Origin: Pirellula staleyi DSM 6068
GTDB lineage: Bacteria; Planctomycetota; Planctomycetia; Pirellulales; Pirellulaceae
Direction of reading: 5' to 3'
DNA length: 32,000 bases
Assembly (NCBI GenBank): GCA_000025185.1
Contig: CP001848.1
Span: 1,380,001 to 1,412,000 of the forward strand
The number at the start of each line of letters is the position of its first letter. Positions within the stretch are counted from its first letter, which is position 1. The notes below the pieces were generated by a model. That model was given only the letters and a program-made list of their open reading frames with translations. It was not told the origin of the DNA and made no database searches. The position numbers and the translations under genes are program-made. Positions 10,431 to 32,000 of this stretch are shown piece after piece.

Positions 10431-10514
10431 ATACTCTCCTGAACTTGCCATATAACCTAAATGCTTGATCGAATTTCGAAATTTTTTGAACTCCAAACCT
10501 ATAAGTTGATGCTA

Positions 10515-11981: not shown

Positions 11982-12260
11982 GATTATTTGCAAATTCCTT
12001 CTTGCTTGTTTACCTAAATCAATCCTTAACGACAACGGCTTTCAACAAATCGTGGTTTCTATGTGGGGCACCCGCCCAACAAATCGCGTGATATGAGGCC
12101 ATCACGCTGGCATCTTGGGACGGTAATAGCAATATGCCCTTACTGCGCCCCTAAAGACGATCAATGTCGACATGCCTTAGACGCGTATGAGCGTCCTCTG
12201 TGTCGACGAAGTATCTACGGGTTTGGTTGTTTGCCAAGAATTGGCAAGATTCCGTAGATT

Positions 12261-14208: not shown

Positions 14209-15362
14209 TCAAGCAATTCTTTCCACCAAATTAATATGTGCCGTCTTGTGTCCATAAGGTGTTCAGGTAGTTTGCGTGTGTCATCATGAACTAAAAATTT
14301 GCACGCCCCAGTTTGTCCATCTTCACCAAGCCCCCAGGCTGCCCCGTGTCTAGAGCAGTATCCCTTGTCATTAGGGCCTAAAAAAAGAGATGCCCCTCTG
14401 AACGGTGTTGTGGTGTATTTTATTGGCAACTGCTAGTATATATGGGGGGCTGTCAGTGAGATTGTCACTCCCACAGATTTCTTCCAGACTGCTAAATCTG
14501 GCCAGGACTTATTTGCTTACCATGACATATGGACCGGGACGTCACTGCTTGATACCCCAGCGATGGGATATGCCAGATCCACTACTGGCCCGTTGCCCGG
14601 AAAAACCTAAATGTAGGAAAGTCCTGTTTCGTCTTTTACTTGCCCTACCGTGCGAGGTTTTAAGCACGGCCTTGCCAGCTTCATGAGCTTTTTGGTTCGG
14701 GATAAAGTCACTAAGTCATAACCCGTTCACACATCCGTGCGAAGTTGCCAATTACTTCCTCTGTGCCCAATGCCGCAGGATCAATTTCAGCCACGAACAT
14801 CAAGCACTCATCCAGTATAACATACAACCCTCCAAATCCGTTCAATTTCGTGGTTGCGAGAGTTGTAAGATGATTCTGCTCAAGAGCTTATAGCCACAGA
14901 ATCATGTCAAGAATTTGCAGCACTTGGGAGACTTTTTGGCGACCTTTCGCCTTGGATGCTACCCAACAATGCTTTGAGATTCTCTGGTTTGAATGACCCG
15001 CTAGAAGATCGCCTACTTCGACTCACATTTCCATTCGTCAGCACAATGCCCCTCACAGCTCGTTCGCTGCTATGCACCTCTCACAAGACATAATTGCGTC
15101 GCCAACTCTTTCAACGCGATCCTAGGGCCCTCTGCGTGGCCTTGAAACGCTCTCAAACGCCCGCCCCTTCGCCAGTGCCTCTCGTGGCTGAGATCGCGCC
15201 CCAACACTCCCCTTCTCCCCACTGCACAACTGCACTGCTGGGAGCCTCCTCTCCGCGATGCTAAATTGCTCTCCCTGCACCGCACTGAAGCCAGCCATTT
15301 GCCCCAAACTTCCCAGTCGTCCCAGCCTCGCCCCTGCTCCTCTCCGAAATCCCCTCTGCACC

Positions 15363-17765
15363 ATGGCCCTCAAAAAGTCGAGTCTCTACTCCTCCCTCTG
15401 GTCAAGCTGCGACGAACTCCGTGGCGGCATGGACGCCAGTCAGTACAAAGACTACGTCCTGGTGCTCCTCTTCCTCAAATACATCAGCGACAAGTACGCC
15501 AACGTCCCCTACGCGCCGATCGAAGTCCCGAAGGGCTCTAGCTTTAAGGACATGGTCGCCCTCAAGGGAACCAAAGACATCGGCGACGATATCAACAAAA
15601 AGATCATCGCCCCCATCGCCCAGGCCAACCGTTTGTCGGACATGCCCGACTTCAACGACTCCACCAAGCTGGGCAGTGGCAAAGAAAAAGTCGATCGCCT
15701 CACCAACCTCATCGCCATCTTCGAAAACAAGTCGCTCGACTTCTCCAAAAACCGAGCCGATGGCGACGACATCCTGGGCGATGCCTACGAATACCTCATG
15801 CGGCACTTCGCCACCGAAAGTGGCAAGAGCAAAGGCCAGTTCTACACCCCGGCCGAAGTCAGCCGCATCATTGCCCAAATCATCGGCATCAAGACCGCCA
15901 AAACCACTGGCAGCACCACGGTTTACGATCCCACATGCGGCTCCGGCTCGCTCCTGTTGAAAGTCAGCGACGAAGCTCAAACGCCAGTCACCCTCTACGG
16001 CCAAGAGAAAGATGCGGCCACCAGCGGCTTGGCTCGCATGAACACCATCCTGCACAACATGCCCACCGCACTCATCGAGCAAGGCAACACCCTCTCCAAT
16101 CCCCGCTTTGTCGATGGCTCGTCGCTCAAGACGTTCGACTACGTCGTCGCCAATCCACCGTTTTCCGACAAACGCTGGAGCACTGGTCTCGATCCAGCCA
16201 GCGATCCCCACGCCCGTTTCACCCTCGGCATTCCACCCGCCAAGCAGGGCGACTATGCCTATCTCCTGCACATCATCCGCTCCCTCAAATCCACTGGCCA
16301 AGGTGCCTGCATTCTTCCGCACGGTGTTCTGTTTCGCGGCAATGCCGAAGCCGAAATCCGCAAAAACCTGCTTCGCAAGGGCTACATCAAAGGGATCATC
16401 GGCCTACCTGCCAACCTCTTCTATGGCACCGGCATCCCTGCCTGCATTGTGGTGATCGATAAGAAAGAGGCCAACCGTCGCCAAGCGATCTTCATGATCG
16501 ATGCCAGCAGTGGCTACATGAAAGATGGCCCCAAGAACCGGCTCCGTGCCCGCGATATCCATAAGATTGTCGACACCTTCAATCAGCAGCTCGAAGTTCC
16601 CAAGTACTCGCGGCTGGTGACGATCGAAGAGATCGAGAAGAACGACTTCAATCTCAATCTTCCCCGCTACATCGATAGCCAAACGCCTGAAGATATTCAG
16701 AACATCGATGGCCATCTTAAGGGTGGCATACCCGTTGAAGATACCACCTCGCTCGAGCCCTACTGGAAAGTCTGCCCTGGTCTTCAAAAAGCACTTTTCA
16801 AGAAGAATCGCACGGGCTTTGTCGATTTGCGTGTCGAGCCTGCCGAAATCAAGACCACCATCTACCAGCATCCAGAGTTCACCCAGTTCATCACCCAGAT
16901 GAATCAGCACTTTGACACTTGGCGACAAAAGGCGGCCAAGACACTCAAAGCGCTCGATGCGGGCCATCATCCGAAGCAGCTCATCGCCAAACTGGCCGAT
17001 GGATTGCTCGAGCACTATCAGGCTTCGCCACTCATCGATCCCTATGCCGTCTATCAGCACCTGATGGACTACTGGGAAACCACCATGCAAGACGATTGCT
17101 ACAGCATCGCCGCCGATGGTTGGAAGGCCGAGCCGCAGCGATTGGTCGAGCAAACCAAAGCGGGCAAAACCAAAGATCGAGGCTGGGCGTGCGATCTGGT
17201 CCCCAAGTCGCTTGTCGTCGCTCGCTACTTTGCTAAGCAGCAGGCCGAAATCGATTCGCTCGCCGCGATGCTCGAAGCTGCCTCAGCCGCCATTGCCGAA
17301 ATGGAAGAAGAGCATGGTGGCGAGGAAGGTCTGTTTGCCGCACTAGAAAAAATCAGCCTGGCTTCGGTCAAGGCGCGGATGAAGGAGATTGTGGCCGAGG
17401 GTGATACGCTCAGCCGCGAGGAATTCGAGCTACTCGAAAAATACTGCGCCTTGGTGCAAGGCGAAACCACGCTTCGTCGCGATCTGGCGACCAAGACCGA
17501 CGAACTCGACCAGCTGGCCCTGGAACACTATGCCAAGCTCACCCCTGCCGAGATCAAAACCCTGGTGGTCGACGACAAATGGCTCGCCACGCTCGCCGCA
17601 GCTGTGCAGGGTGAAATGGACCGCATCAGCCAATCGCTCACCTCGCGCGTGAAGGAGCTGGCCGAGCGCTACCGCGAGCCGCTCCCCCAGCTTACCCTCC
17701 GCTGCCAACAGCTCGAAGCCCAGGTCAACACGCATCTGGAAAGGATGGGCTTCTCATGGCAGTGA
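15363..17765 (+). CDS. hsdM: Type I restriction-modification system, DNA methyltransferase subunit M (long form, ~800 aa)
   Basis: The N-terminus LWSSCDELRGGMDASQYKDYVLVLLFLKYISDKY is an HsdM N-domain. The SAM motif is VYDPTCGSGSLL and the catalytic motif is VVANPPFS. I prefer the start at the ATG at 15363 (MALKKSSLY...). The upstream part of the track ORF (15258-) is low-complexity. Confidence 0.92.
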   Translation: MALKKSSLYSSLWSSCDELRGGMDASQYKDYVLVLLFLKYISDKYANVPYAPIEVPKGSSFKDMVALKGTKDIGDDINKKIIAPIAQANRLSDMPDFNDSTKLGSGKEKVDRLTNLIAIFENKSLDFSKNRADGDDILGDAYEYLMRHFATESGKSKGQFYTPAEVSRIIAQIIGIKTAKTTGSTTVYDPTCGSGSLLLKVSDEAQTPVTLYGQEKDAATSGLARMNTILHNMPTALIEQGNTLSNPRFVDGSSLKTFDYVVANPPFSDKRWSTGLDPASDPHARFTLGIPPAKQGDYAYLLHIIRSLKSTGQGACILPHGVLFRGNAEAEIRKNLLRKGYIKGIIGLPANLFYGTGIPACIVVIDKKEANRRQAIFMIDASSGYMKDGPKNRLRARDIHKIVDTFNQQLEVPKYSRLVTIEEIEKNDFNLNLPRYIDSQTPEDIQNIDGHLKGGIPVEDTTSLEPYWKVCPGLQKALFKKNRTGFVDLRVEPAEIKTTIYQHPEFTQFITQMNQHFDTWRQKAAKTLKALDAGHHPKQLIAKLADGLLEHYQASPLIDPYAVYQHLMDYWETTMQDDCYSIAADGWKAEPQRLVEQTKAGKTKDRGWACDLVPKSLVVARYFAKQQAEIDSLAAMLEAASAAIAEMEEEHGGEEGLFAALEKISLASVKARMKEIVAEGDTLSREEFELLEKYCALVQGETTLRRDLATKTDELDQLALEHYAKLTPAEIKTLVVDDKWLATLAAAVQGEMDRISQSLTSRVKELAERYREPLPQLTLRCQQLEAQVNTHLERMGFSWQ

Positions 17766-19021
17766 AACCCGGCTTCAAGATGACCGAAATCGGCGAGATA
17801 CCGGCGGAATGGAACGCATATCACTTGTCGCAATTGTGGAAAGTTACTGACTGTAAACATGTAACAGCCACTTTTGTACCTGAAGGCTATCCTGTCGCAA
17901 GTATCAGAGAAGTGCAAAGCAAGTTTGTCAATCTACATGCCGCAAATCATACAACTCCCCACTTTTACAGACTGCTCATCGAGGGAGGACGTGATCCGCA
18001 AGCCGGAGATTTGATTCTAAGTCGAAATGCCACAGTTGGACAAATTGCGCAAGTGTCTCACTCACATCCAAAGTTCGCGATGGGACAAGACGTCTGTCTA
18101 CTTAGAAAAACTTCTCCGACAAATAGTACAGAGTTCATTCAGGCTGTATTTCAATCTCGAATTATAAAACAGCAGATATCCGACATTCTGGTCGGTTCAA
18201 CGTTCAAGAGAATTAATGTCAAGCAAATCAAGGCTTTTATAGTTCCTTCACCATCGGCAGCCGAACAACGGGCGATTGCGGGGGCGTTGTCGGATGTGGA
18301 TGCACTGATCGAGTCGCTCGAGCAGCTGATTGCCAAAAAGCGCGCCATCAAACAAGGAGCCATGCAAGAACTCCTCACCGGCAAACGCCGCCTCCCCGGA
18401 TTTTCAGGAAAATGGGAGAAGAAGCGACTTCAACAAATTGCTTGGTACCAAGAAGGTCCCGGTGTTCAGAAGCATCAGTTCGCAAGTGTCGGGACCAAAT
18501 TATTGAATGGATCGAATATAAGTCATGGCGAACTTTTTCTCGACCAGACTGAACGGTATATCGAAGATCAACTTGCGAATGGGACTTATCGACATTTCTT
18601 ATGCGATGCCGGCGACATCGTCATCGCGTCGTCTGGAATTTCACCGGCGACACTGAATGAAAAGATGGCGATTGTGCAAGCGTCGCATCTCCCACTTTGC
18701 ATGAACACTTCAACGATACGGTTTAAAGCGAATCAGGACCTTGCAACACAAGCGTTTCTATTTGTCTGCTTGCAGGGCAATTCGTTTAGGGATCAGATTG
18801 CTGGCATGGCGACAGGCTCAGCACAGTTAAACTTTGGGCCGTCTCACTTGAATAAAGTTGAACTGCTTCTACCTACCATTTCCGAGCAAGTTGCAGTAGC
18901 CGATGTCATTGGCTCTCTAGAACATGAATTGAGAAAACTTGACGATAGACTCACCAAACTCCGCCTCCTCAAACAAGCGATGATGCAGCAGCTGCTGACG
19001 GGGAAGATTCGGTTGGTGTAA
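17756..19021 (+). CDS. hsdS: Type I restriction-modification system, specificity subunit S
   Basis: Two variable, AT-richer target-recognition regions are separated by the conserved helices AEQRAIAGALSDVDALIESLEQLIAKKRAIKQGAMQELLTGKRRLPGF and SEQVAVADVIGSLEHELRKLDDRLTKLRLLKQAMMQQLLTGKIRLV. It overlaps the hsdM stop (ATGGCAGTGA). An alternative start is at 17780. Confidence 0.9.
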   Translation: MAVKPGFKMTEIGEIPAEWNAYHLSQLWKVTDCKHVTATFVPEGYPVASIREVQSKFVNLHAANHTTPHFYRLLIEGGRDPQAGDLILSRNATVGQIAQVSHSHPKFAMGQDVCLLRKTSPTNSTEFIQAVFQSRIIKQQISDILVGSTFKRINVKQIKAFIVPSPSAAEQRAIAGALSDVDALIESLEQLIAKKRAIKQGAMQELLTGKRRLPGFSGKWEKKRLQQIAWYQEGPGVQKHQFASVGTKLLNGSNISHGELFLDQTERYIEDQLANGTYRHFLCDAGDIVIASSGISPATLNEKMAIVQASHLPLCMNTSTIRFKANQDLATQAFLFVCLQGNSFRDQIAGMATGSAQLNFGPSHLNKVELLLPTISEQVAVADVIGSLEHELRKLDDRLTKLRLLKQAMMQQLLTGKIRLV

Positions 19022-19579: not shown

Positions 19580-22500
19580 ATGTCGACCATCGGCGCTCCC
19601 GAACGCGAAACCCAGTCGCGCGTGATCCAGCTATTTTGCCAAGAGCTGGGCTACGACTATCTCGGCGATTTTCGCGACCGCGATGGCAACTCCAACGTCG
19701 AAACCACCTTGCTCGAAAAGTGGCTCGCCGCTCGAGGCTATTCACCCGCCCAAATCAGTGCCGCCATCTACAGGCTCACCAGCGAGGCCCATCACCCCAA
19801 TCGCAAGCTGATGGCCAGCAACAAAGCGGTCTATAGCCTGCTCCGCTACGGCGTGCCGGTGAAGGTGGAAGTCGGCAGCCCCACCGAAACCGTCCACCTC
19901 ATCGACTGGAGCCACCCCGAGCAAAACCACTTTGCCATCGCCGAAGAAGTGACATTGCAAGGCGACCACGACCGTCGCCCTGACCTCGTGATGTATGTCA
20001 ACGGCATTGCCATCGGCGTGATCGAACTCAAGAGCAGTATTGCGAGCATTGGCGAAGGCATTCGGCAACTCCTTTCGAACCAACAGACGCAGTTTCATGC
20101 CTGGTTCTTCTCGACCGTGCAACTGGTGCTCGCCGGTAGCAACTCCGAAGGGCTGCAATATGGAACCATCGGCACCGAGGAAAAGTATTTCCTCAAATGG
20201 AAAGAAGACGAAACCGACAACAGCCGGTTTAAGCTCGACAAATATCTTTTGAAGATCTGCCGCAAGGATCGCTTGATCGAACTACTGCTCGACTTCGTGC
20301 TGTTTGATGGCGGGGTGAAAAAACTGCCCCGCGTGCATCAGTACTTTGGTATCAAAGCGGCCCAGGAGCATGTGCGACAGAAAAAGGGTGGCATCATCTG
20401 GCACACCCAAGGGAGCGGCAAGAGCATTGTGATGGTGCTGCTGGCCAAGTGGATTTTGGAGAACTACCCGCAGGCCCGTGTGGCGATCATCACCGACCGC
20501 GACGAGCTCGATAAGCAAATCGAAGGAGTGCTCCGCGATGCCGGCGCGATTGGCGAAAACGATCAAGTGCGGGCCACCAGTGGCAGCGACCTGATGGTCA
20601 AACTGGCCCAGCCCACCCCCAGGCTGATTTGCTCGCTGGTGCACAAATTCGGCCGCAAGAAGGTCGACAACTTTGAGAAGTTCATCGAGGAACTGGAGGC
20701 TCAGCCTAGCCCTGCGGTGGGCGAACTGTTTGTGTTCGTCGACGAATGCCACCGGACGCAAAGTGGCAAGCTGCATCGAGTGATGAAGGCGCTGCTCCCC
20801 ACGGCAACGTTCATTGGCTTCACCGGCACCCCGCTGCTGAAAGACGACAAGGCCACCAGCCTCGAAATCTTTGGCGGCTATATCCACACCTACAAGTTCA
20901 GCGAAGCTGTCGAAGACAAGGTGGTGCTCGATCTGATCTATGAAGCCCGCGACATCGACCAACGACTATCGAGCCCCGAAAAGATCGACGAGTGGTTCGA
21001 GGCCAAAACACGCGGGCTCAACGACTGGCAAAAGAACGAGCTGAAAACCACGTGGGGAACGATGCAAAACCTGCTCAGTTCCAAATCGCGCATGAACCGC
21101 GTGGTGGCCGACATCCTGCACGACTTCAGCTGTCGCCCCCGGCTGAAAAGCGAACGGGGCAATGCCATCCTCGTCGCCTCTTCGATCTACGAAGCGTGCA
21201 AATACTACAAGCTCTTTCAAGAAACGCCTCTGAAAGGCAAATGCGCGATCATCACCTCGTACAATCCGCAGGCCAAAGACATTACGAAAGAAGAAGTCGG
21301 CGCTAACACCGAGACCGATAAGCAGTTTGTCTACAACACCTATACCGACCTGCTGACCGACGTCGCCCCTAATCCCAAGCAATCAAAAACCGAAACCTAC
21401 GAAGAAAATGCCAAGCATCTGTTTGTCGAAGAACCTGCCAACATGAAGCTATTGGTGGTGGTCGATAAACTCCTCACCGGCTTTGATGCCCCTTCGTGCA
21501 GCTATCTCTACATCGATAAGTCGATGCAGGACCATGGCCTGTTTCAAGCGATCTGCCGCACCAATCGACTCGACGATGACTCGAAAGACTTTGGCTATAT
21601 CGTCGACTATAAGAACCTCTTTAAGAGTGTGCAGAAGGCGATCAAGGTCTATACCTCGGAGATCGACAAAACTTCGGGCGGCTCCGATCCAGAAGTGCTG
21701 ATGCACGATCGTCTTACCAAAGGCAAAGAGCGGCTCGATAATGCCATCGAAGCGATCGAACTTTTGTGTGAACCGGTTGATCCACCGAAGGCAGAACTCG
21801 AACATATTCGCTACTTCTGCGGAAATACCGAAGTTCCCACCGATCTGAAAGAGCGCGAGCCGATGCGTGTGGCGCTCTACAAAGCAACCGTAGCACTGCT
21901 CCGCGCCTATGGAAGCATTGCCGACGAACTGGAAGAGGCTGGGTATAGCGCTGGCGAAGTGAAGCGGATCAAGAAGCGGCTCGATCACTTTGTGAACATG
22001 CGCGAAATCGTTCGCAAAGCGAGCGGCGAAACACTCGATCTTAAACCGTATGAATCGGACATGCGGCACCTGATCGATTCATATATCGATGCGTCGGAGC
22101 CGCGCAAGATCTCGCCCTTTGACAACATGGGGCTCTTGGAACTGATTGTCAAAACGGGAATTGCCGAAGCGATTGCCAACCAGCTTGGCGGGATGAAAGG
22201 AAACCAAGATGCCATCGCCGAGACGATCGAAAACAACGTTCGTAGCAAGATCATTACCGATCGTAATAACGACCCCGCCTTTTATGATCGCATGTCGACC
22301 TTGCTCGACGAAATCGTCGCCGCACGTAAGGCCAAAGCGATCAAGTACGAAGACTTTCTGAAGAAGGTGGCCGAGCTTGCCAAGATGGTTCACGAGGGAA
22401 AAGATGCTGAACTATCGGCTAAACTCAACACGCCTGGCAAGCGAGCCCTTTACAACAATTTAGCCAACGACGAAGCAACGGCGCTCAAAATCGACGAAAC

Positions 22501-22642
22501 GGTGAAGGCTGTGCGACCTGATGACTGGCGCGGCGTACAAGCCCGCGAGAAGATCATTAAGGCAGCCCTTTACGGTGTTTTGCAGGATAGCGAACAAGTG
22601 GAAAAGGTATTTGAGATCGTGAAAGCGCAGAAGGAGTACTAA
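19580..22642 (+). CDS. hsdR: Type I restriction enzyme, R (endonuclease/translocase) subunit
   Basis: SF2 helicase motifs are present: HTQGSGKS (I), FVDECHRTQ (II, DEAH-like), FTGTP (III) and QAICRTNR (VI). The N-terminal nuclease region (DLVMYVNGIAIGVIELK) is typical of HsdR. Length is 1020 aa. Confidence 0.93.
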   Translation: MSTIGAPERETQSRVIQLFCQELGYDYLGDFRDRDGNSNVETTLLEKWLAARGYSPAQISAAIYRLTSEAHHPNRKLMASNKAVYSLLRYGVPVKVEVGSPTETVHLIDWSHPEQNHFAIAEEVTLQGDHDRRPDLVMYVNGIAIGVIELKSSIASIGEGIRQLLSNQQTQFHAWFFSTVQLVLAGSNSEGLQYGTIGTEEKYFLKWKEDETDNSRFKLDKYLLKICRKDRLIELLLDFVLFDGGVKKLPRVHQYFGIKAAQEHVRQKKGGIIWHTQGSGKSIVMVLLAKWILENYPQARVAIITDRDELDKQIEGVLRDAGAIGENDQVRATSGSDLMVKLAQPTPRLICSLVHKFGRKKVDNFEKFIEELEAQPSPAVGELFVFVDECHRTQSGKLHRVMKALLPTATFIGFTGTPLLKDDKATSLEIFGGYIHTYKFSEAVEDKVVLDLIYEARDIDQRLSSPEKIDEWFEAKTRGLNDWQKNELKTTWGTMQNLLSSKSRMNRVVADILHDFSCRPRLKSERGNAILVASSIYEACKYYKLFQETPLKGKCAIITSYNPQAKDITKEEVGANTETDKQFVYNTYTDLLTDVAPNPKQSKTETYEENAKHLFVEEPANMKLLVVVDKLLTGFDAPSCSYLYIDKSMQDHGLFQAICRTNRLDDDSKDFGYIVDYKNLFKSVQKAIKVYTSEIDKTSGGSDPEVLMHDRLTKGKERLDNAIEAIELLCEPVDPPKAELEHIRYFCGNTEVPTDLKEREPMRVALYKATVALLRAYGSIADELEEAGYSAGEVKRIKKRLDHFVNMREIVRKASGETLDLKPYESDMRHLIDSYIDASEPRKISPFDNMGLLELIVKTGIAEAIANQLGGMKGNQDAIAETIENNVRSKIITDRNNDPAFYDRMSTLLDEIVAARKAKAIKYEDFLKKVAELAKMVHEGKDAELSAKLNTPGKRALYNNLANDEATALKIDETVKAVRPDDWRGVQAREKIIKAALYGVLQDSEQVEKVFEIVKAQKEY

Positions 22643-23358
22643 TGAGCGAAGTACTTCAGCTTGGCGACTTGGCGATTGAGCTCATTCAGAAAGACATCAA
22701 GAACGTCCACTTGAGTGTGCATCCACCGCATGGTCGAGTGCGCATTGCAGTGCCCAAGAACATGACGCGCGAGCGGGTGCGGGTGTTTGCTATTTCGAAG
22801 CTGGCATGGATCAGGCAGCAACAAAAGAAACTGCGCGAGCAAGCCCGAGAGTCGCGGCGTGAGTACTCGGAACGCGAGAGCCATTATGTGTGGGGCAAAC
22901 GCTATTTGCTCACCATCCTGGAGAAGAATGAGCCACCCAAGATTGAATTGCTGCATCGCAAGTTGCGAATGACCGTTCGGCCTGTGACGGACGAAGTACA
23001 GCGGGCGGCGCTGCTGGAGGGTTGGTATCGCGAGTTGATTCGTCAGCGGGCACCTGACTTTATTGAGCGTTGGCAAAAGCAGCTGGGTGTGGAGCACTCG
23101 AAGTTTTTTGTACGTCGGATGAAGACCCGCTGGGGAAGCTGCAATCCGGTGCGGCGAACCATTCGGCTCAATACCGATCTCGCCAAAAAACCCATCGAGT
23201 GTCTGGAGTATGTGATTGTGCATGAGTTGATGCACCTCTTGGAGCCAACGCACAATGCTCGTTTTGTACGGCTGATGAATCACCATTTTCCCAGCTGGCA
23301 ACAGTGCCGCAATTTGCTCAACCGCCTACCTGTCAGGCACGAAGATTGGAGGGTGTAG
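22642..23358 (+). CDS. YgjP/DUF45-type (M48/SprT-like) zinc metallopeptidase commonly linked to type I R-M
   Basis: RWGSCNPVRRTIRLNTDLAKKPIECLEYVIVHELMHLLEPTHNARF contains the HExxH zinc motif in the DUF45 context. Its start overlaps the hsdR stop (TAATG). Confidence 0.8.
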   Translation: MSEVLQLGDLAIELIQKDIKNVHLSVHPPHGRVRIAVPKNMTRERVRVFAISKLAWIRQQQKKLREQARESRREYSERESHYVWGKRYLLTILEKNEPPKIELLHRKLRMTVRPVTDEVQRAALLEGWYRELIRQRAPDFIERWQKQLGVEHSKFFVRRMKTRWGSCNPVRRTIRLNTDLAKKPIECLEYVIVHELMHLLEPTHNARFVRLMNHHFPSWQQCRNLLNRLPVRHEDWRV

Positions 23359-23842: not shown

Positions 23843-25020
23843 GTGTGAGAAAGAGGCCCTTCGGGGCCGATTGAGACTTGTAGTTCGTACGGTGCTCTAA
23901 CCAACTGAGGGTGTGAGAAAGAGGCCCTTCGGGGCCGATTGAGACGACGTCATACGCGTCGTGAGACGTTGGTACGCCAGTGTGAGAAAGAGGCCCTTCG
24001 GGGCCGATTGAGACCCAACCCGACTCAGGGAGATTCTGAAGAACGCTAAGGTGTGAGAAAGAGGCCCTTCGGGGCCGATTGAGACGCGCACCACCAAACA
24101 GATCTCACGAGAGTCGCGCTTAGTGTGAGAAAGAGGCCCTTCGGGGCCGATTGAGACTCTGGCTTCTCAGCCGGAGGCGCCTTTGGCTCCTGTGTGAGAA
24201 TGAGGCCCTTCGGGGCCGATTGAGACGCCTCCGTCGGTGAGTTCTTGATGGCGTCATTTTCGTGTGAGAATGAGGCCCTTCGGGGCCGATTGAGACAGGA
24301 ATTGTTTCCGCCGTTCTTCACGAGCTAAACGCTGTGTGAGAAAGAGGCCCTTCGGGGCCGATTGAGACTACGTCTCGAATGACCCGTGCGTGAAGTAACG
24401 GTGGTGTGAGAAAGAGGCCCTTCGGGGCCGATTGAGACCCGCCGCGATCGGAAAGTTCAATCCGTTCACGCCTGTGTGAGAAAGAGGCCCTTCGGGGCCG
24501 ATTGAGACCCGACATCGCTGACATAGTATCGTGCAACTTCCTTACCCGTGTGAGAAAGAGGCCCTTCGGGGCCGATTGAGACCGCGGAGCGGCAACCGGG
24601 ATGTCGATCCCGAGACGATCGGTGTGAGAAAGAGGCCCTTCGGGGCCGATTGAGACACTCGGGTTTGCGAAATCCTCATCGACACTGATTGCGTGTGAGA
24701 AAGAGGCCCTTCGGGGCCGATTGAGACGAAGGAATGTGCCTACGCGACTACTACACGGAATCGTGCGTGTGAGAATGAGGCCCTTCGGGGCCGATTGAGA
24801 CTGCGTGAAATACCGATGGTACCCCACCGTCACCCGAGTGTGAGAATGAGGCCCTTCGGGGCCGATTGAGACTTCCCTTGCAGGAGGCTCACGGCTGTCA
24901 TTGTTAGGTTTCGTGTGAGAAAGAGGCCCTTCGGGGCCGATTGAGACGGACTCCTCGTAACGGTCCTCCATGTCCTCACGGTGCAGGGTGAGAAAGAGGC
25001 CCTTCGGGGCCGATCTTTAA
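23843..25020 (+). CRISPR. CRISPR array 1: 17 repeats (last one degenerate), 16 spacers
   Basis: The 35-nt repeat is GTGTGAGAAAGAGGCCCTTCGGGGCCGATTGAGAC. It has an internal GGCCC-TTCG-GGGCC hairpin and a 3' ATTGAGAC, the canonical Cas6-type 8-nt handle. Repeat starts: 23843, 23911, 23980, 24051, 24123, 24192, 24262, 24334, 24404, 24474, 24548, 24622, 24693, 24767, 24838, 24913, 24986. Spacers are 33-40 nt and all unique. The terminal repeat diverges (GGGTGAG...GATCTTTAA), consistent with a leader on the left. Confidence 0.95.
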
Positions 25021-25106: not shown

Positions 25107-27935
25107 ATGCAGATCTTTCGCGTCCGCGTGCTACTGCGCATCAAAACCGCCACGCGGATGCACGCCCATCACGCTGCCATCTTGTATGCGCTGCTCTGCG
25201 AAGCTCACGCCGCTGCACACCAGATCGATCCCTGCATTCCCGATGGGCTCCTCCTCGATGCTCCCGAGCAAGCCAGGCTCATGCTCGCCGCTGGCAGCAA
25301 GTATGCCTTCGGCTTCACGCTCCTTGCGCCCACCGAGCGACAAGCCTGCACCGTGGTCGATCATCTCGTGCGTGGTCTGCGCAAGGTGGGACGCGCCAAA
25401 ACCAAACCTAAGCCCGCTTTGGGTGGCAATTTTGAGGTCGAGCTGGTTGAAGATCTGGTAGCGAAGCAAACCCATCGCACCGGGCATCCACTGCAGCCGA
25501 TTGCCATTGAGGCCATCACCCAAGAGATTGCCGCGCTTGAAGGTTTAGTGCAACTCACCTTACAATTCCATTCGCCCCTGCGAGCCCATCGTCCCAAGAA
25601 GGCACGACGCGATGGTCACCAGTTTTTTGATGATCACTATTTCCATCCGCAGGCACTATTGCACCGCTTGCAATCTCGGATCGAATCACTAGGCATCTGT
25701 CCCGCTCCGTTTCAGCCTCATCTTCGGCCCCAAGCGGCTGCCCCACTCGATGGCTGGCCCGAACCTGCTTCGCCACTACCGGAAGATGCAGCTGAACCCA
25801 TCAGTCACTCCCCAATTCCCGCCGTTGTTTCGAATGAATTGGTTTGGCTCGACGTCTCGTATGGACCCCGGCACTCGCGCAAAACATTGGGAGGGGCCGT
25901 TGGATCGGTCAAGCTCGACGGACTTCAGCCTGCCACGATCGCCACACTTGTTTGGGGGCAGTATGTGCGCATCGGGGAGGGAACCCGGTTTGGTTTTGGG
26001 GCCTATCGCATCGCTGAGCTAGCAAGCGATCCCTATGTTTGCGAGCGTTCAACCCGCCTACTCGATCTTGCCACCGAGCATCCAGCACTCGACCAAGCTG
26101 CTTCGAAGTGGGATCTCGGTGGTGGTGAGGTTCAATCAGCGGCCCGTGATCTCGTGAAGGGAACCTATCAACCGCAGCCCTGCTTTCGCCTAGATATCCC
26201 CAAATCCAATGGCGACCGGCGTCAGCTCGCCATTCCCAGTCGACTCGATCGTGTGCTTCAGCGGAGCATCCTGGATGTGATTGCTCCAGCACTCGAGTTG
26301 TTCTTTGAAGAGTCGTCGTTTGCCTATCGTCGCGGTCTGGGGCGACACACCGCTGCGCGGCATCTGAGCCAAGCCTTTACCGATGGTTATCGTTGGGCTT
26401 TACACGCCGATTTCTTTGACTTTTTTGACACCATCGACCACAAACTATTGCGCCGTCGGCTCGCTGCCTATTTGGCAGATCCTAGCTTGGTAGAAGTTAT
26501 CATGCGCTGGGTCGAAACCGGTGCGCCTCATCCAGACCATGGCATTCCAACCGGCGCACCTCTCTCGCCGATCTTGGCAAACTTGTTCCTCGATCAGTTT
26601 GACGAAGCGATGCACAGCGTGGGGCGTCGACTCGTCCGCTATGCCGATGATTTTGTCGTCCTCTTTCGCGATCAATCCGAAGCACAAGCAGTGATTAGTG
26701 AAGTACGCCAAGCAGCAGAGTCGCTTCGCCTGGAACTCAATCGCGACAAGACGCACACACTCCACCTCGCCACATCCTTTGACTTTTTAGGACTCCATTT
26801 CGAGCCTCGAGAAATTTGGGAGGTCACCACCATTGACGAGCCCCAGCTCATCGAGCAGCTGGGATGGAAAGAGCGCTCGCGCAAGCCCTCTGGTGGCGTG
26901 CTGCATCCTCTGCCAGGTGAAAGCCAACTAGCAACACCGCTTCCAGGTACTTTGATTGCAGGCCCTGGCATAGAAGAAATTCTCGTTCACGGCGATGTGC
27001 TTCAATTCAAACATCAAGATCAGCGTGGTATTGAATCGATCCCCTTGCACACGCTACGCGAGGTCGTTGTTCTAGGAGCGGTCTCGCTTTCCCACCGTGT
27101 ACTATCTGCCATTCAGCAGAATGCTATCTCGCTGTTGCTTTTGGACGAGTCGGCAAATCGAACGGCATACATCGACTGTCAAAACGCCGAACCCGATTCA
27201 GCAGGAATTGAAGCCCAAGTTGATTTGATTCGAAATCCTGAAAGTAGCTTAGCAATCGCTCGCCAATTGATTTCAGCAAAACTGCATAACTATGCGACCT
27301 TGGCAGACGCCTATCCACCCAAGTCACACTCAGGAAATGCCCATCGTTCCTTGATGCGACTGGCAAAGGATGCCCAGCAAGCATCGTCGCTGCCAGAACT
27401 GCTTGGTATCGAGGGAAGCGGAGCTGCGCTTTGGTATGGCGAAATCGGGATGCGGCTTTCCCCCGGCTTCCACTGGGAGCGTCGAGTCGCGCCCAACGCT
27501 CATGACCCTGTCAATATTCTGCTGAATCTCGCGCAAACAGTTCTCTATCGCATGACACAACATGCCATCGCCCAAGCTAAGCTCGTCGACACCCTGGGGT
27601 TTTTGCATCAGCCACGCGCGGGGCATGCAGCCCTGGCGTCCGATATGCAAGAACCTTTTCGTCACTTGATGGATCGAGCGGTATTAGAGACCGTGCGGCG
27701 TATTCGACCGGAAGAGTTTGAACCCGACGAACGTGGTCCTTTTCCAGTACGCATGAAACCGCGAGCACTTCGTGAATCACTGGCGTGGATTCATCGAATA
27801 CTTGCCCTGCCATGCAATGGTGCCGGGCAATCTTCTCCAACAGCCTATCGATTGCAGATCTTCAAACAGGTCCGATCTTTTCGAAGGTTCCTGATGGATC
27901 CTGGAGGACGGTTTGAGCCGTTTCGACATCCATGA
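25107..27935 (+). CDS. cas1: Cas6-reverse transcriptase-Cas1 fusion protein (type III-associated RT-Cas1)
   Basis: The N-terminal ~300 aa end in a Cas6-like glycine-rich loop, GEGTRFGFGAYRI. The central group-II-intron-like RT has RRQLAIPSRLDRVLQRSIL, IPTGAPLSPILANLFL and the catalytic RYADDFVVL. The C-terminal Cas1 has ELLGIEGSGAALWY, NAHDPVNILLNLAQTVLY and ASDMQEPFRHLMDRAVL. Confidence 0.9.
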   Translation: MQIFRVRVLLRIKTATRMHAHHAAILYALLCEAHAAAHQIDPCIPDGLLLDAPEQARLMLAAGSKYAFGFTLLAPTERQACTVVDHLVRGLRKVGRAKTKPKPALGGNFEVELVEDLVAKQTHRTGHPLQPIAIEAITQEIAALEGLVQLTLQFHSPLRAHRPKKARRDGHQFFDDHYFHPQALLHRLQSRIESLGICPAPFQPHLRPQAAAPLDGWPEPASPLPEDAAEPISHSPIPAVVSNELVWLDVSYGPRHSRKTLGGAVGSVKLDGLQPATIATLVWGQYVRIGEGTRFGFGAYRIAELASDPYVCERSTRLLDLATEHPALDQAASKWDLGGGEVQSAARDLVKGTYQPQPCFRLDIPKSNGDRRQLAIPSRLDRVLQRSILDVIAPALELFFEESSFAYRRGLGRHTAARHLSQAFTDGYRWALHADFFDFFDTIDHKLLRRRLAAYLADPSLVEVIMRWVETGAPHPDHGIPTGAPLSPILANLFLDQFDEAMHSVGRRLVRYADDFVVLFRDQSEAQAVISEVRQAAESLRLELNRDKTHTLHLATSFDFLGLHFEPREIWEVTTIDEPQLIEQLGWKERSRKPSGGVLHPLPGESQLATPLPGTLIAGPGIEEILVHGDVLQFKHQDQRGIESIPLHTLREVVVLGAVSLSHRVLSAIQQNAISLLLLDESANRTAYIDCQNAEPDSAGIEAQVDLIRNPESSLAIARQLISAKLHNYATLADAYPPKSHSGNAHRSLMRLAKDAQQASSLPELLGIEGSGAALWYGEIGMRLSPGFHWERRVAPNAHDPVNILLNLAQTVLYRMTQHAIAQAKLVDTLGFLHQPRAGHAALASDMQEPFRHLMDRAVLETVRRIRPEEFEPDERGPFPVRMKPRALRESLAWIHRILALPCNGAGQSSPTAYRLQIFKQVRSFRRFLMDPGGRFEPFRHP

Positions 27936-28204
27936 GCCTCTACTTGGCCAGCTACGACATTTCGGACGACAAACGGAGAGCGAAAGTCGCCCGATTCCTA
28001 CTACAGTTTGGCGCTCGACTTCAGAAGTCGGTTTTTGAGATCGACCTCGATCCCGATGAGATTGCAGAGTTTCGCCGGGACGTTGGCTCGATCCTGTCAC
28101 AAAAGGACTTGTTTGTGTTGGTGCCAGTCGATGAACGTGGCAGCCGATCCACTCTCTCGTGGCAACGTGAATTGAGGCGGATGGATGCAGTGATCGTCCT
28201 TTAG
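27932..28204 (+). CDS. cas2: CRISPR-associated endoribonuclease Cas2
   Basis: 90 aa. MSLYLASYDISDDKRRAKVARFLLQFGARLQKSVFE is the canonical Cas2 beta1-alpha1-beta2 with the conserved Asp. ATGA overlaps the RT-cas1 stop. Confidence 0.85.
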   Translation: MSLYLASYDISDDKRRAKVARFLLQFGARLQKSVFEIDLDPDEIAEFRRDVGSILSQKDLFVLVPVDERGSRSTLSWQRELRRMDAVIVL

Positions 28205-28801: not shown

Positions 28802-29837
28802 GTGTGAGAAAGAGGCCCTTCGGGGCCGATTGAGACCTCATCGCTGAGCTTCTTCTTCGCGGCGGCCTTTGCGTGTGAGAAAGAGGCCCTTCGGGGCCGA
28901 TTGAGACCAAGAATTCTGCCGAAGTAGTGAGAGTCATCCCAGTGTGAGAAAGAGGCCCTTCGGGGCCGATTGAGACAATTGATGATGTCGAGATAGATTG
29001 CAAGTGCGCAATCGTGTGAGAAAGAGGCCCTTCGGGGCCGATTGAGACAATGCCGCCGTTCTCGTTACGTTCAAAACTGAAGTCGTGTGAGAAAGAGGCC
29101 CTTCGGGGCCGATTGAGACACAAGAACCGTACTCCAAACCTTGCCAGTCTTGCGTGTGAGAAAGAGGCCCTTCGGGGCCGATTGAGACTTCCGGCCTCCG
29201 GCCGGAATCACCGTGGTTTGACGTGTGAGAATGAGGCCCTTCGGGGCCGATTGAGACGTGATCGAGGCAGAGTTAAACGCAGTCCATCCGAGTGTGAGAA
29301 TGAAGGCCCTTCGGGGCCGATTGAGACGATGAGGCCATTACCTTCTTTTCTTTGCCTTTTAGGTGTGAGAATGAGGCCCTTCGGGGCCGATTGAGACCAG
29401 TTCGGTTGCGACGGCGATGGGGTCTTGCCCGAAGTGTGAGAAAGAGGCCCTTCGGGGCCGATTGAGACACCGTCCGCGTTCCATCCCTGTAGGGACAAAT
29501 CCCCAGCCTCCGTGTGAGAATGAGGCCCTTCGGGGCCGATTGAGACCGTCGCTGGCAACGGTGTTCTCTATCTGATTTTCGGGTGTGAGAAAGAGGCCCT
29601 TCGGGGCCGATTGAGACGCAACAGCGACAGAAGTGATGATGAACAGAACAGCAACCGTGTGAGAAAGAGGCCCTTCGGGGCCGATTGAGACCGCACGACT
29701 TTGCCTTTTTCGTACAGCTTGTTGATTTGCCGTGTGAGAAAGAGGCCCTTCGGGGCCGATTGAGACGTTCTGCATGATCCAGAACAGACTGGAGCAGTGG
29801 CGGTGTGAGAAAGAGGCCCTTCGGGGCCAATTTGACG
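28802..29837 (+). CRISPR. CRISPR array 2: 15 repeats (last one degenerate), 14 spacers
   Basis: Same 35-nt repeat and orientation as array 1. Repeat starts: 28802, 28873, 28942, 29014, 29085, 29154, 29223, 29292, 29363, 29434, 29512, 29583, 29657, 29732, 29803. Spacers are 34-43 nt and all unique, with none shared with array 1. Repeat 8 is 36 nt (extra A). The terminal repeat diverges (…GGGGCCAATTTGACG). Confidence 0.95.
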
Positions 29838-30067: not shown

Positions 30068-31780
30068 ATGTCCCAGCCAGCTTCGCCGGCGACTGAAATT
30101 CCGGTGGAGCTGTTTCGCCAGATTCTGATTTGGCCGTTGCTGATTCATGCCCCTCATGGCGAATCAGCAATGGAATTAATGGATCTTGTAACGGACGAGC
30201 TAGAGCGTCACTCGTGGCATTGGAATGATCGATCCGCAGGCCAAAGTGCTTCGCCGCTGAAGGGGCTTCCTTGGTATCAGGACGATCATGACTATTCGGA
30301 GATCGTTTACTTCCACTCCTACGTGCGCGACTTTCTCTATGGAGGCGATGGAACACCGGCTAGCGAGCGACCACTTCGCGTCCTTCGTCGTACCGACATT
30401 GCTTCACTCCTGTTAAAGGTTGATGAAGGTCGCGAATATCGGCTGAAGGTCGAACGTGTCGAAGCCTATCTGTTCGATTCAGGCATTCTGCAAGTCGTGG
30501 TAGAAGTTGCCGCCCCGCAATTGGTATCCAAGTCGCCGACCGATAGTGAGCAGTTGCGGCCATTCATGCTCAGCGATGCACTCGATCTACAGAATGTGCT
30601 GCGCATGGCTTTTCCGCGCCGCTGGAAGCCGAAAACTGGCATACCTTCGGAAACTCCACACCGAGCTTGTTGGCTCAACTCCGAGGGAAGTGAAATCGCC
30701 GGGAGTGTTCAGGACTTTCTTAACCAGGAAGACTTTACTCGGATCGTGCGCGAGCAGGCCGAACTGCCGGCCGCCAAACACTGGCAGTATCTCGTCCAAC
30801 CCCTGCCACTCTTTGAGCGACGGGTTTGCACTGGATTGTCGGTCAAGCAAATTGAAGACCAGCGTTTACCTTCGATGTCGTACATCGCTGTCCCTGATCC
30901 GCGTTTGATTTCCGACGGCGACTTTGAGCGAATCGCCTTCTTCGACAGCGCCGGTCAGTCTTCGGTAGGTTCCTATTCCGATGAATTTCTAGTCGGTTGG
31001 GAAAAGGATCATGCTTACGACCGCTTTTGGCAACGACTCCCCAGCGAAGGCGGTCCTGAAGTTGCCCTGCATAACCAAATGATGCGAACTCGTTGGCTCT
31101 GCAGCGGCTATGGTTTTGCGGTGGTGGGTGCCAGCGGCGACAAGTTCTTCACTACTCAGATTGCAGCCAACTTTCGCCATCACTATTTTCGCATGGGGCT
31201 GATCGCCCATTTTCATCGTGCCAAGCTAATCTCACTTCGTGACCAACTTGCTGAAGCGACAAAACAGGTAGGTGAGAACTTCCGCAATCGCGTGATGGAG
31301 ATCCAGCGAAGCGCTACCATCTTTCGCGCCCGATTCTGGTTTCATGAGGTATCCACACAGCTTCAAGGTCGTGAGATTTTCACGTGGTGGTCCAATCGAC
31401 TCGGCAATCCATCGCTATTTGAGCATGTGATTTCCGACATCGAAGCTGCTGAGTCGCAAGTTCGAACCGAATTTGAAGCAGAAGAATCTCAAGACATTAA
31501 CCTCATCACACGCGTGGGTGGTGCGATTGGTATTCTGAGTATTGTACTCTCAATTGTAGCGCTAATCATTTCGCTGCTTGCACTGGAAGCCATTTCGCCA
31601 CTTAAGCAGTTTGCGATCATGCCAGCCAATCCATGGGACTGGACAGTTGCCAACCTCTGGCTTGGCCGTATCGCCTCGATCGCGTGCCCCCTATCAATTG
31701 TGAGCCTTTGGATTCTATTGGTCGTCTATGGTGGGCTTCGATATTACAAGAGCCATCGTCGTACTCGACGCTTGAGGTAG
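30068..31780 (+). CDS. Hypothetical membrane protein: large cytoplasmic domain plus C-terminal two-TM hairpin, CorA-like architecture (candidate CRISPR-associated membrane effector)
   Basis: 570-aa ORF with good coding character. The last ~90 aa read DINLITRVGGAIGILSIVLSIVALIISLLAL - loop FAIMPANPWDW - LWLGRIASIACPLSIVSLWILLVVYGGL - basic tail YYKSHRRTRRLR. This parallels CorA (N..M..LT - TM1 - GMN/MPEL.W loop - TM2 - basic tail) but lacks GMN. Long helical segments precede it (HYFRMGLIAHFHRAKLISLRDQLAEA...). The family assignment is inference only. Confidence 0.5.
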   Translation: MSQPASPATEIPVELFRQILIWPLLIHAPHGESAMELMDLVTDELERHSWHWNDRSAGQSASPLKGLPWYQDDHDYSEIVYFHSYVRDFLYGGDGTPASERPLRVLRRTDIASLLLKVDEGREYRLKVERVEAYLFDSGILQVVVEVAAPQLVSKSPTDSEQLRPFMLSDALDLQNVLRMAFPRRWKPKTGIPSETPHRACWLNSEGSEIAGSVQDFLNQEDFTRIVREQAELPAAKHWQYLVQPLPLFERRVCTGLSVKQIEDQRLPSMSYIAVPDPRLISDGDFERIAFFDSAGQSSVGSYSDEFLVGWEKDHAYDRFWQRLPSEGGPEVALHNQMMRTRWLCSGYGFAVVGASGDKFFTTQIAANFRHHYFRMGLIAHFHRAKLISLRDQLAEATKQVGENFRNRVMEIQRSATIFRARFWFHEVSTQLQGREIFTWWSNRLGNPSLFEHVISDIEAAESQVRTEFEAEESQDINLITRVGGAIGILSIVLSIVALIISLLALEAISPLKQFAIMPANPWDWTVANLWLGRIASIACPLSIVSLWILLVVYGGLRYYKSHRRTRRLR

Positions 31781-31824
31781 TTTCACCCTCCATCAAACAC
31801 ATTTACTGAATGACGGTGTTTGTG

Positions 31825-32000
31825 ATGCCAAGCTTTCTGCTAAGACTAGAAGCCGTCAACTTCAGCGAGTCCTGCTACGACACTTGCGACATTAGCACAA
31901 TTCGCGGCGGCTCGATGATGTTGTCGAATGCTCATGAGCTAGCTCGCGTCGTTCTGCCGCAGGAAATCCAGCACGAGCCGACAAGTTTCGGGGCTTCTCA
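31825..32000 (+). CDS. 3'-truncated ORF; N-terminus resembles the first palm-domain motifs of Cas10/mCpol-type cyclases
   Basis: Translated by hand from the ATG at 31825: MPSFLLRLEAVNFSESCYDTCDISTIRGGSMMLSNAHELARVVLPQEIQHEPTSFGAS, open to the window end. The pattern hhhh-E/D-h-x-x-F followed ~15 aa later by IRGGSMML recalls, from memory, the Cas10 palm motifs (..GDhSGIQxFI.. then ..LRGRSFxL..). Only 58 codons are visible. Confidence 0.35.
   Translation, partial: MPSFLLRLEAVNFSESCYDTCDISTIRGGSMMLSNAHELARVVLPQEIQHEPTSFGAS

Follow-up and report, generated by a model that had tools for sequence, protein, structure and literature searches.

The corA-like gene of Pirellula staleyi DSM 6068 and the cas10 gene behind it very probably open a type III-D2 CRISPR-Cas interference operon with SAM-AMP-type signalling to CorA. 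Both lie at the end of the 32,000-nt stretch of DNA analysed here (the window), and effector genes are absent from the window because its edge cuts the operon. The original prediction had offered two readings, a divergent CorA-type type III system or a stand-alone pair of a palm cyclase and a membrane effector not yet described. The first of these holds for the CorA-type type III system; the type, however, is III-D2 and not III-B as cited, and the system is not especially divergent. The P. staleyi locus is a further example of a known system (III-D2, characterised in 2026) and not a new one. The features of the locus are:

23843..24947, + strand: CRISPR array 1, 16 copies of the 35-nt repeat GTGTGAGAAAGAGGCCCTTCGGGGCCGATTGAGAC
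25107..27935, + strand: Cas6-RT-Cas1 fusion, 942 aa (Cas_Cas1 E=5e-48, RVT_1 E=5e-33, CRISPR_Cas6 E=2e-6)
27932..28204, + strand: Cas2, 90 aa (CRISPR_Cas2 E=1.7e-15)
28802..29837, + strand: CRISPR array 2, 13 repeat copies at ≤3 mismatches
30068..31780, + strand: corA-like membrane effector gene, 570 aa (Psta_1139; ADB15821.1), match to the PDLC01043 profile
31825..32000, + strand: 5' end of cas10, 58 codons, cut by the window edge (58/58 identical to P0085)

A search of the window with the 35-nt repeat revealed 29 matches, against 0 expected by chance, and both arrays are on the same strand. The 3' end of the repeat is a type III-like tag (ATTGAGAC). In array 2 the sequence shows a degenerate terminal repeat at 29803-29837, and a 106-nt gap at 29258-29362 would leave space for one further divergent repeat. 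The Cas6-RT-Cas1 fusion and Cas2 are flanked by arrays 1 and 2, and corA lies directly downstream of the arrays. The fusion protein, which also matched the Cas1_IIIb model in a PADLOC search (E=4e-83), is the adaptation enzyme and probably processes crRNA as well.

Reading of the open reading frames confirmed the 570-aa ORF, whose product is 100% identical to Psta_1139 of P. staleyi DSM 6068. The protein had been considered unannotatable, which did not hold, as the PADLOC profile PDLC01043 (CRISPR-associated CorA-like) matches it from end to end (E=8.3e-132), aligning residues 7-561 with positions 2-456 of the 457 in the profile. A further PADLOC model, PDLC01174, gave E=1.7e-41. The CRISPR-associated CorA-like family comprises 993 cluster representatives. 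Identification came only through the defence-specific profile (PADLOC) and the family profile: the Pfam CorA family (PF01544) gave no match at E≤1, no Pfam threshold was reached, and NCBIfam profiles and a single-sequence PDB search revealed nothing useful. Among the profiles named for checking in the original prediction, those for CRISPR-associated CorA and for Cas10 matched and Pfam CorA did not. A distant relative (P0041) scores 25.7 bits against Pfam CorA, with a cut-off of 27, and the family profile matches the TM region of T. maritima CorA (residues 281-348, TM1-loop-TM2) at E=0.003. Structural comparison, likewise suggested at the outset, points the same way: in a Foldseek search of the PDB with an AF2 monomer model (mean pLDDT 89.6), the nine top matches were all CorA, at weak scores (best E=3.6e-3; TM-score 0.16-0.26).

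Hydropathy analysis placed TM1 at ~477-515 and TM2 at ~532-558, followed by the basic tail YYKSHRRTRRLR, and the AF2 model contains a 69-residue helix (447-515) and a second helix (522-569). Both support the CorA layout described before for the C-terminus (helix, TM1, loop, TM2, basic tail); the stalk helix would follow a predicted cytoplasmic sensor domain of ~445 residues. R266, D285 and R288 of the CorA-like protein are invariant residues. The loop does contain the reported MP..W (AIMPANPWDW), but already the closest relatives do not conserve it, and it was rejected both as a GMN equivalent and as a family motif. A scan for G[MIV]N detected no GMN motif at the end of TM1 in P. staleyi CorA (P0001) and its closest relatives (P0002-P0017), the flag in P0003 being a GIN in the pre-TM1 helix. 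More distant relatives have kept it (P0041, P0044, P0045, P0048, P0052, P0063-65, P0069, P0073 and P0077). Judged from these sequences, the P. staleyi CorA clade has lost the GMN motif. CorA relatives at ~35% identity, within III-D2 operons, carry a fused N-terminal DHH_CorA (NrN-like) domain. Annotation of these longer relatives with Pfam DHH was tried and gave no match; the PADLOC DHH_CorA model settled the identity of the domain. The P. staleyi-clade CorAs form a subclade of their own, without GMN and without the fused DHH domain. Promoter and terminator scans around corA performed no better than on shuffled sequence.

The next ORF starts at an ATG at 31825, 44 nt past the corA stop codon on the same strand, and its N-terminus reads MPSFLLRLEAVNFSESCYDTCDISTIRGGSMML. 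As predicted, it opens with LRLEAVNF…IRGGSMML and has no HD domain ahead of these motifs; the alignment with the III-D2 Cas10 of the solved complex (PDB 9wxh_B; E=2.4e-41) begins at native residue 2. The full protein (P0085; ADB15822.1) has 499 aa as annotated from an ATG at 31810, or 494 aa from the ATG at 31825, and the homologues support the latter as the probable start. It also matches PADLOC Cas10 (E=1.5e-25). The motif pair, which had been taken for the beta1/alpha motifs of a Cas10 or mCpol palm, is real and belongs to a true Cas10. Instead of a generic palm signature, however, it is the conserved N-terminus of the III-D2 Cas10 family, which by alignment forms the SAM pocket. The GGDD motif, which the original prediction had proposed to look for, is intact at residues 296-299, and the N-terminal motif together with GGDD or GGDE was found in ~120 Cas10 homologues. 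Aligning P0085 with Gab Cas10 paired the SAM-pocket residues E8, N11, S29, S123 and Q186 with E14, N17, S35, S63 and Q125, and the metal and phosphate ligands D286, G287, D347 and K420 with D225, G226, D298 and K360. The roles of these residues are described for the III-D2 Cas10 pocket (PMC13294483, section 15), and both sets are conserved across 117 Cas10 homologues.

The P. staleyi proteins encoded past the window edge were recovered through homologues and accession numbering. The lack of effector genes noted before is true of the window, yet the same genome encodes a Cas7x3 protein, a fusion of three Cas7 domains (P0201; ADB15824.1; 1272 aa), two genes past Cas10; the GenBank, UniProt and RefSeq numberings agree in placing CorA at n, Cas10 at n+1 and Cas7x3 at n+3. 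P0201 matches 9wxh_D (E=1e-57), 8s9t_E (E=9e-113) and also 8s9t_D, as well as III-D Csm3/Cas7 models of PADLOC. Within it, residues 11-361 correspond to Cas7-2x and 618-1269 to the Cas7-insertion protein, with weaker matches to Cas7-11. The protein encoded between Cas10 and Cas7x3, ADB15823.1, is called Cas7-5 by synteny only and is a putative member of that family. The order CorA-Cas10-Cas7-5-Cas7x3 is syntenic in four independent relatives (L001/L002, L003/L004, L005/L006 and L007/L008; eight loci, four being duplicate assemblies), with overlapping or near-abutting reading frames from Cas10 through Cas7-5 to Cas7x3. The survey of homologue neighbourhoods that had been proposed finds CorA next to Cas10 in type III operons (L001, L003, L005, L007), and in L005 the operon continues with Cas2 and Cas6-RT-Cas1. 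The relatives' proteins at the Cas7-5 position have 626-656 aa. The one from L001 matches 9wxh_C (E=4e-96) and PADLOC III-D Csm4 (E=8e-67) and keeps the catalytic D29. The best PADLOC models for the downstream RAMPs were CAS-III-D Csm4, Csm3 and Cas7_IIId. A type III-B (Cmr) assignment was rejected because these RAMPs are fused III-D-type proteins and not separate Cmr1 and Cmr3-6. What the sequences show directly is which genes these are, their homologues and shared gene order, and that the residues of the SAM pocket and of catalysis are kept.

III-D2 systems typically encode Cas7x3, Cas7-5, Cas10 and CorA; the characterised one makes SAM-AMP and SAM-AMP2, and its CorA is needed for Cas10-dependent growth arrest (PMC13294483). 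By analogy with this system (Gammaproteobacteria HyVt-522) and with the B. fragilis III-B system, pre-crRNA from the arrays would be processed, and the Cas6 domain of Cas6-RT-Cas1 would probably do this; Cas10, Cas7-5 and Cas7x3 would then form a complex with the crRNA. A complementary foreign transcript, once bound, would activate the GGDD palm of the HD-less Cas10. Cas10 may then couple ATP to S-adenosylmethionine at its 3'-OH, giving SAM-AMP, and possibly SAM-AMP2. The messenger would bind the cytoplasmic domain of CorA and open a two-TM, presumably pentameric pore, and the open pore would depolarise the membrane and arrest growth of the infected cell.

Accessory genes described for related systems were looked for around the operon. 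NrN is required in the B. fragilis system (PMC10600005), and a VapBC-like TA module is described as typical of III-D2 and as indispensable to defence by the HyVt-522 system (PMC13294483). No NrN/DHH enzyme, DEDD enzyme or SAM-AMP lyase was found within the window, and a tblastn search (E≤0.1) detected no DHH_CorA-like sequence in the window or in L001-L006. No SAM-AMP-degrading genes were called in the L001-L006 flanks, where DEDD and lyase genes were judged from Pfam labels only. The NrN or SAM-lyase genes suggested in the original prediction were found neither in the window nor among the calls in these flanks. Likewise, the window holds no candidate gene for a VapBC-like TA module between the arrays and corA, and none was called beside the operon in L001, L003, L005 and L007.

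The proposal of a stand-alone cyclase and membrane effector of the mCpol kind, acting independently of a CRISPR effector complex, drew on the absence of any RAMP or cmr/csm gene from the window and on a short (~495 aa), HD-less Cas10. It is now highly improbable, and mCpol and other stand-alone cyclases were rejected, because RAMP backbone genes follow cas10: Cas7x3 lies two genes past it in the same genome, Cas7-5 and Cas7x3 follow it in the four independent relatives, and the protein itself has a homologue among the subunits of the solved complex 9WXH. It is somewhat less improbable, but still very unlikely, that the CorA-like protein transports divalent cations constitutively and modulates Cas activity, instead of acting as a messenger-gated suicide or dormancy effector. 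The CorA of an RT-associated VI-B1 system transports Zn2+, Ni2+ and Cd2+ and down-regulates Cas13b (PMC11662929), and relatives that share the N-terminal domain and still have the GMN motif occur in ordinary metabolic neighbourhoods (L009/L010, L011). The P. staleyi clade, however, lacks this selectivity motif, no terminator-like site was detected in the gap between corA and the co-directional cas10, and the requirement for CorA in the growth arrest of the characterised III-D2 system also argues for an effector.

A different messenger deserves more weight, although we consider it unlikely. The architecture would still be III-D2, but the Planctomycete clade would make something other than SAM-AMP (SAM joined to another nucleotide, or a product of another length), sensed by a co-evolved, GMN-less CorA. 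Alignment of the donor-adenine pocket revealed Q at F290 and R at D307 in 16/16 of the Cas10s closest to P. staleyi (Q229 and R245 in P. staleyi numbering) and in 0/101 of the others; the clade also has H or Q at W124, and GGDD rather than GGDE. In the characterised complex D307 touches the adenine N6, and the D307A substitution abolishes SAM-AMP synthesis (PMC13294483, section 15). Since D307 is lost, the donor nucleotide or the product could differ in the P. staleyi clade. In addition, the L001 Cas7-5 is without the segment bearing W351, a residue needed for SAM-AMP2 (PMC13294483), the paired CorAs form the separate subclade described above, and different activators for CorA clades were already proposed by Hoikkala 2024. 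Against this, the SAM contacts E8, N11, S123 and Q186 vary little or not at all among the 117 homologues, those of the P. staleyi clade included, an arginine could stack on the adenine in place of the lost phenylalanine so that ATP may remain the donor, and the pocket assignment is itself a sequence alignment to a homologue at E=2.4e-41. With a similarly low probability, the clade would be a functional variant of III-D2, defined by the Q229/R245 pocket, a Cas7-5 without the SAM-AMP2 tryptophan and a CorA without GMN, NrN or TA, in which a messenger other than SAM-AMP or SAM-AMP2 would be used and the signal perhaps reset by another route.

An RT-CRISPR locus that seemed to lack effectors and to carry an orphan membrane protein is thereby read as an ordinary III-D2 operon cut by the window edge, which is not to be counted as a new signalling pair. 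CorA-associated III-D systems were flagged for study by Makarova et al. (2025), partly since they encode no SAM-AMP-cleaving enzyme. The NrN-like DHH fusion in CorA relatives from III-D2 operons, and its absence from the P. staleyi clade, bear on this point. The two substitutions that mark the Cas10 donor pocket of this clade are a testable lead on messenger diversity. Because the P. staleyi type strain is in culture and has RT-based adaptation, its III-D2 system could be studied in the native host.

One of the closest known systems is HyVt-522 III-D2 (2026, Nat Commun, PMC13294483; PDB 9WXH/9WXI/9WXJ). It shares with P. staleyi the order corA, cas10, cas7-5, cas7x3 (here with cas7-5 by synteny), an HD-less Cas10 with the N-terminal E..N / RGGS SAM pocket and a GGD(D/E) site, homologous Cas7x3 and Cas7-5 proteins (Cas7-5 compared via L001), a repeat of ~35-37 nt and a CorA that combines a soluble N-terminal domain with two TM helices at the C-terminus. 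In contrast to HyVt-522, P. staleyi has Cas6-RT-Cas1 and Cas2, with Cas6 fused and not free, and no VapBC-like TA module is visible in its window. Its Cas10 has GGDD instead of GGDE and Q/R for F290/D307, and the Cas7-5 of its relative L001 is without the W351 segment. The C-terminal two thirds of its Cas7x3 are far closer to the Synechocystis III-Dv Cas7-insertion protein (8s9t_E, E=9e-113) than to 9wxh_D.

The B. fragilis III-B CorA/NrN system (Chi et al. 2023, Nature, PMC10600005) also has an HD-less Cas10, which joins ATP to SAM, and its membrane effector is a CorA-family protein whose N-terminal domain is unique; adaptation modules with RT-Cas1 are likewise found in this group. It differs in its separate Cmr1-6 proteins, as opposed to the fused Cas7-5 and Cas7x3 of the P. 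staleyi system, and in its need for the NrN phosphodiesterase, for which no gene was found in the P. staleyi window. Comparison of III-B and III-D2 CorA proteins showed only ~15% identity (PMC13294483). With the CorA/MIT Mg2+/Co2+ channels (T. maritima CorA, PF01544) the P. staleyi protein shares a long stalk helix that continues as TM1, then a short loop on the periplasmic side, TM2 and a basic C-terminal tail, and its profile and fold matches to them are weak but specific. It lacks, however, the GMN motif and a Pfam match at E≤1, its cytoplasmic domain is ~200 residues larger, and TM-scores to funnel-bearing CorA are low. A fused multi-Cas7 backbone is common to P. staleyi, III-Dv and III-E; in III-Dv, for which no CorA is noted, Cas7-2x and Cas7-insertion are separate proteins accompanied by Csx19, whereas III-E lacks Cas10 and uses the Csx29 protease for signalling.

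The original prediction of a 570-aa ORF with two hydrophobic C-terminal segments, followed by an ORF opening with palm-like motifs, was confirmed in the following arrangement:

30068-31780, + strand: CorA-like ORF, 570 aa
From ATG 31825 past the window end, + strand: 5' end of cas10, reading MPSFLLRLEAVNFSESCYDTCDISTIRGGSMML, 44 nt beyond the corA stop

The 570-aa protein is Psta_1139 of Pirellula staleyi DSM 6068 (100% identity). Its hydrophobic segments (~477-515 and ~532-558) enclose the loop LKQFAIMPANPWDW and are followed by YYKSHRRTRRLR. Searches of Pfam, NCBIfam and, with the single sequence, the PDB revealed no match. The protein can nevertheless be annotated, contrary to the original statement: the PADLOC 'CorA-like' model PDLC01043 matched it end to end (E=8.3e-132). 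Counted in a library of 50%-identity clusters, the family has 993 representatives with E<=1e-3, 294 of them with E<=1e-30. An AF2 model from 49 homologues was confident (pLDDT 89.6) and predicted a cytoplasmic domain of mixed alpha/beta structure, followed by a helix of 69 residues (447-515) and a final helix (522-569). The proposed CorA relationship held in part: the family profile matched T. maritima CorA across TM1-loop-TM2 (E=0.003) and the best nine Foldseek matches in the PDB were all CorA, but with E-values of 3.6e-3 or worse and low TM-scores (0.16-0.26). The tie to true CorA channels is specific yet weak.

The motif GF(L/I)GMN(L/V) is kept in distant family members (27-29% identity, ~90% coverage), some of which match Pfam CorA. 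A motif check on relatives found GMN, the CorA selectivity motif at the end of TM1, absent from the P. staleyi subclade, which has lost it. The predicted loop motif MP..W is present as MPANPW, but is absent even from 60%-identical relatives. On the PDLC01043 match, the weak CorA profile and fold link and the GMN loss, the protein belongs to the CRISPR-associated CorA-like family; by the criteria that define Mg2+-selective CorA proteins it does not qualify as one. Two GMN-bearing family members with the whole N-terminal domain (P0069, P0052) reside in ordinary metabolic neighbourhoods with no cas genes, so the 'CRISPR' CorA sensor domain is not restricted to CRISPR loci; a third GMN-bearing protein, P0064, adjoins RT, Cas1, Cas2 and Cas6. 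The non-CRISPR or RT-linked family loci are L009/L010 (10001-11671), L011 (609-2291) and L012 (2381-4165).

The 58 cas10 codons in the window are all identical to residues 6-63 of P. staleyi Cas10 (P0085; ADB15822.1, 499 aa). P0085 matched PADLOC Cas10 models (E=1.5e-25), Pfam Cas10/Cmr2 palm2 (26.4 bits) and chain B of the HyVt-522 type III-D2 complex (PDB 9WXH/9WXI/9WXJ; E=2.4e-41), and carries WGGDD at residues 295-299. The alignment begins at native residue 2 of 9WXH Cas10, so both proteins are without an HD domain, as had been noted for the window's ORF. ADB15822.1 as annotated begins at ATG 31810 (MTVFVMPSF...). Homologue N-termini all read M-P-x-(F/Y)-L-L-R-L-E-A-V-N-F; because close homologues thus begin at the equivalent of ATG 31825, this start is likelier and the annotated one probably five codons too long.

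Relatives' loci and accession numbers were used to infer the genes beyond position 32000. L001 is the closest relative: its corA (product 63% identical to P. staleyi CorA) is followed in order by genes for a 508-aa Cas10 (78% identical across the 58 residues that the window covers), a Cas7-Cas5 fusion of 653 aa (E=4e-96 to 9wxh_C) and a 1262-aa triple-Cas7 protein. The same four-gene order was found in L003/L004, L005/L006 and L007/L008, and in L005 Cas2 and a Cas6-RT-Cas1 fusion come next after the operon. In P. staleyi, consecutive GenBank, UniProt and RefSeq accessions run from CorA (ADB15821/D2R8Z4) and Cas10 (ADB15822/D2R8Z5) over one gene to Cas7x3 (ADB15824/D2R8Z7; P0201, 1272 aa), which matches 9wxh_D, 8s9t_E and 8s9t_D. 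From this synteny and numbering, the predicted P. staleyi order is corA-cas10-(putative cas7-5)-cas7x3, as in published type III-D2. Of the two readings originally offered, the CorA-type type III system is therefore right, whereas an undescribed stand-alone cyclase/effector pair is ruled out by Cas7x3, encoded two accession numbers after Cas10, and by the relatives' gene order. P0201 aligns with HyVt-522 Cas7x3 only over residues 13-469 (E=1e-57); its C-terminal half is far nearer the Synechocystis III-Dv Cas7-insertion subunit 8s9t_E (residues 618-1269, E=9e-113), which hints that III-Dv-like Cas7-2x and Cas7-insertion proteins were fused.

Cas7x3, Cas7-5, Cas10 and CorA are typical of III-D2 loci (Mitsuda et al. 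2026, PMC13294483). With cognate target RNA bound, the characterised complex yields SAM-AMP and SAM-AMP2 and no cyclic oligoadenylates, and Cas10-dependent growth arrest needs CorA. SAM is held by E8, N11, L12, S29, L33, S123 and Q186, and ATP/Mg2+ by G121, A122, W124, D286, G287, K289-G291 (including F290), F306, D307, G346, D347, E348 and K420 (PMC13294483). We aligned 117 Cas10 homologues to the 9WXH sequence fragments. The predicted palm motif pair is real and lies in Cas10, but by alignment coincides exactly with the SAM pocket: LRLEAVNF holds E8, N11 and L12, and IRGGSMML holds S29 and L33. Across the family E8, N11, S123 and Q186 vary little or not at all (P. staleyi E14, N17, S63, Q125), and the metal/phosphate ligands D225, G226, D298 and K360 are present in P. 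staleyi. These conserved residues support, by inference, SAM-nucleotide signalling to CorA: a Cas10-made SAM-nucleotide messenger would act on CorA, and by analogy a pentameric pore may depolarise the cell and lead to dormancy, steps that are themselves proposals in the literature (PMC10600005).

The 16 Cas10s closest to P. staleyi (P0078-P0093, including the one whose start lies at 31825-32000), each paired with a GMN-less CorA, all have Q at F290 and R at D307 (0/101 other homologues), and also H/Q at W124, F at L12 and GGDD rather than GGDE. In the characterised enzyme D307 touches adenine N6 and D307A abolishes synthesis (PMC13294483). The Q/R pair may change the donor nucleotide or may amount to no more than a compensated pocket. 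A second Cas10 subclade, linked to DHH-CorA, has W306/S307. The L001 Cas7-5 (13196-15157) keeps the catalytic GLD (D29); the 7-residue YPWPFIR segment with W351, required for SAM-AMP2 synthesis in the characterised III-D2 complex, is absent.

A search of the window and L001-L006 revealed no DHH/NrN domain; the genes called there include neither a DEDD enzyme nor a SAM-AMP lyase, nor any VapBC-like toxin-antitoxin gene. In CorA relatives at ~35% identity, a DHH_CorA domain of 245-270 aa is fused to the N-terminus (PADLOC DHH_CorA E=2e-28; C3a116 E=6e-63); these are the L007 protein, P0019, P0020, P0023, P0028, P0036, P0049, P0051 and P0056. In L007 (10001-19851) the fusion heads a Cas10-Cas7-5-Cas7x3 (III-D2) operon. 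III-D CorA loci were reported to lack known SAM-AMP-cleaving enzymes and to deserve more study (Makarova et al. 2025); the L007 fusion places an NrN-like enzyme inside a III-D2 locus, and the statement in PMC12669027 needs qualifying accordingly.

Upstream of corA lie the following features:

9106-9179, + strand: tRNA-Asn, abutting the tyrosine integrase
9117-10496, - strand: tyrosine integrase
10515-12035, - strand: DUF3987 gene
13282-14208: DUF4357 gene
15258-17765, 17756-19021 and 19580-22642: hsdM, hsdS and hsdR of a complete type I restriction-modification system
22642-23358: YgjP-like metallopeptidase
23843-24947, + strand: CRISPR array 1
25107-27935, + strand: Cas6-RT-Cas1 fusion
27932-28204, + strand: Cas2
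28802-29837, + strand: CRISPR array 2

One 35-nt repeat occurs in 29 copies across both arrays (0 expected by chance). A one-base variant, GAATGAGG instead of GAAAGAGG, occurs in blocks in both arrays, with four copies in array 1 (24192-24872) and three in array 2 (29223-29546), which suggests a common history of, or recombination between, the arrays. The CRISPR locus directly follows the metallopeptidase gene that closes the segment 9106-23358; together, these features look like a tRNA-integrated defence island.

CorA loci adjoining RT-Cas1 modules are already known, and the P. staleyi RT-Cas1 was noted earlier (PMC5513706). The locus is a real feature and an uncharacterised example of the known III-D2 system, not a new system; what still makes it interesting is the Cas10 pocket specific to its clade and the lack of a visible off-switch. 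Among known systems, HyVt-522 III-D2 comes closest; the III-B CorA/NrN system of B. fragilis is analogous in function but has another backbone.
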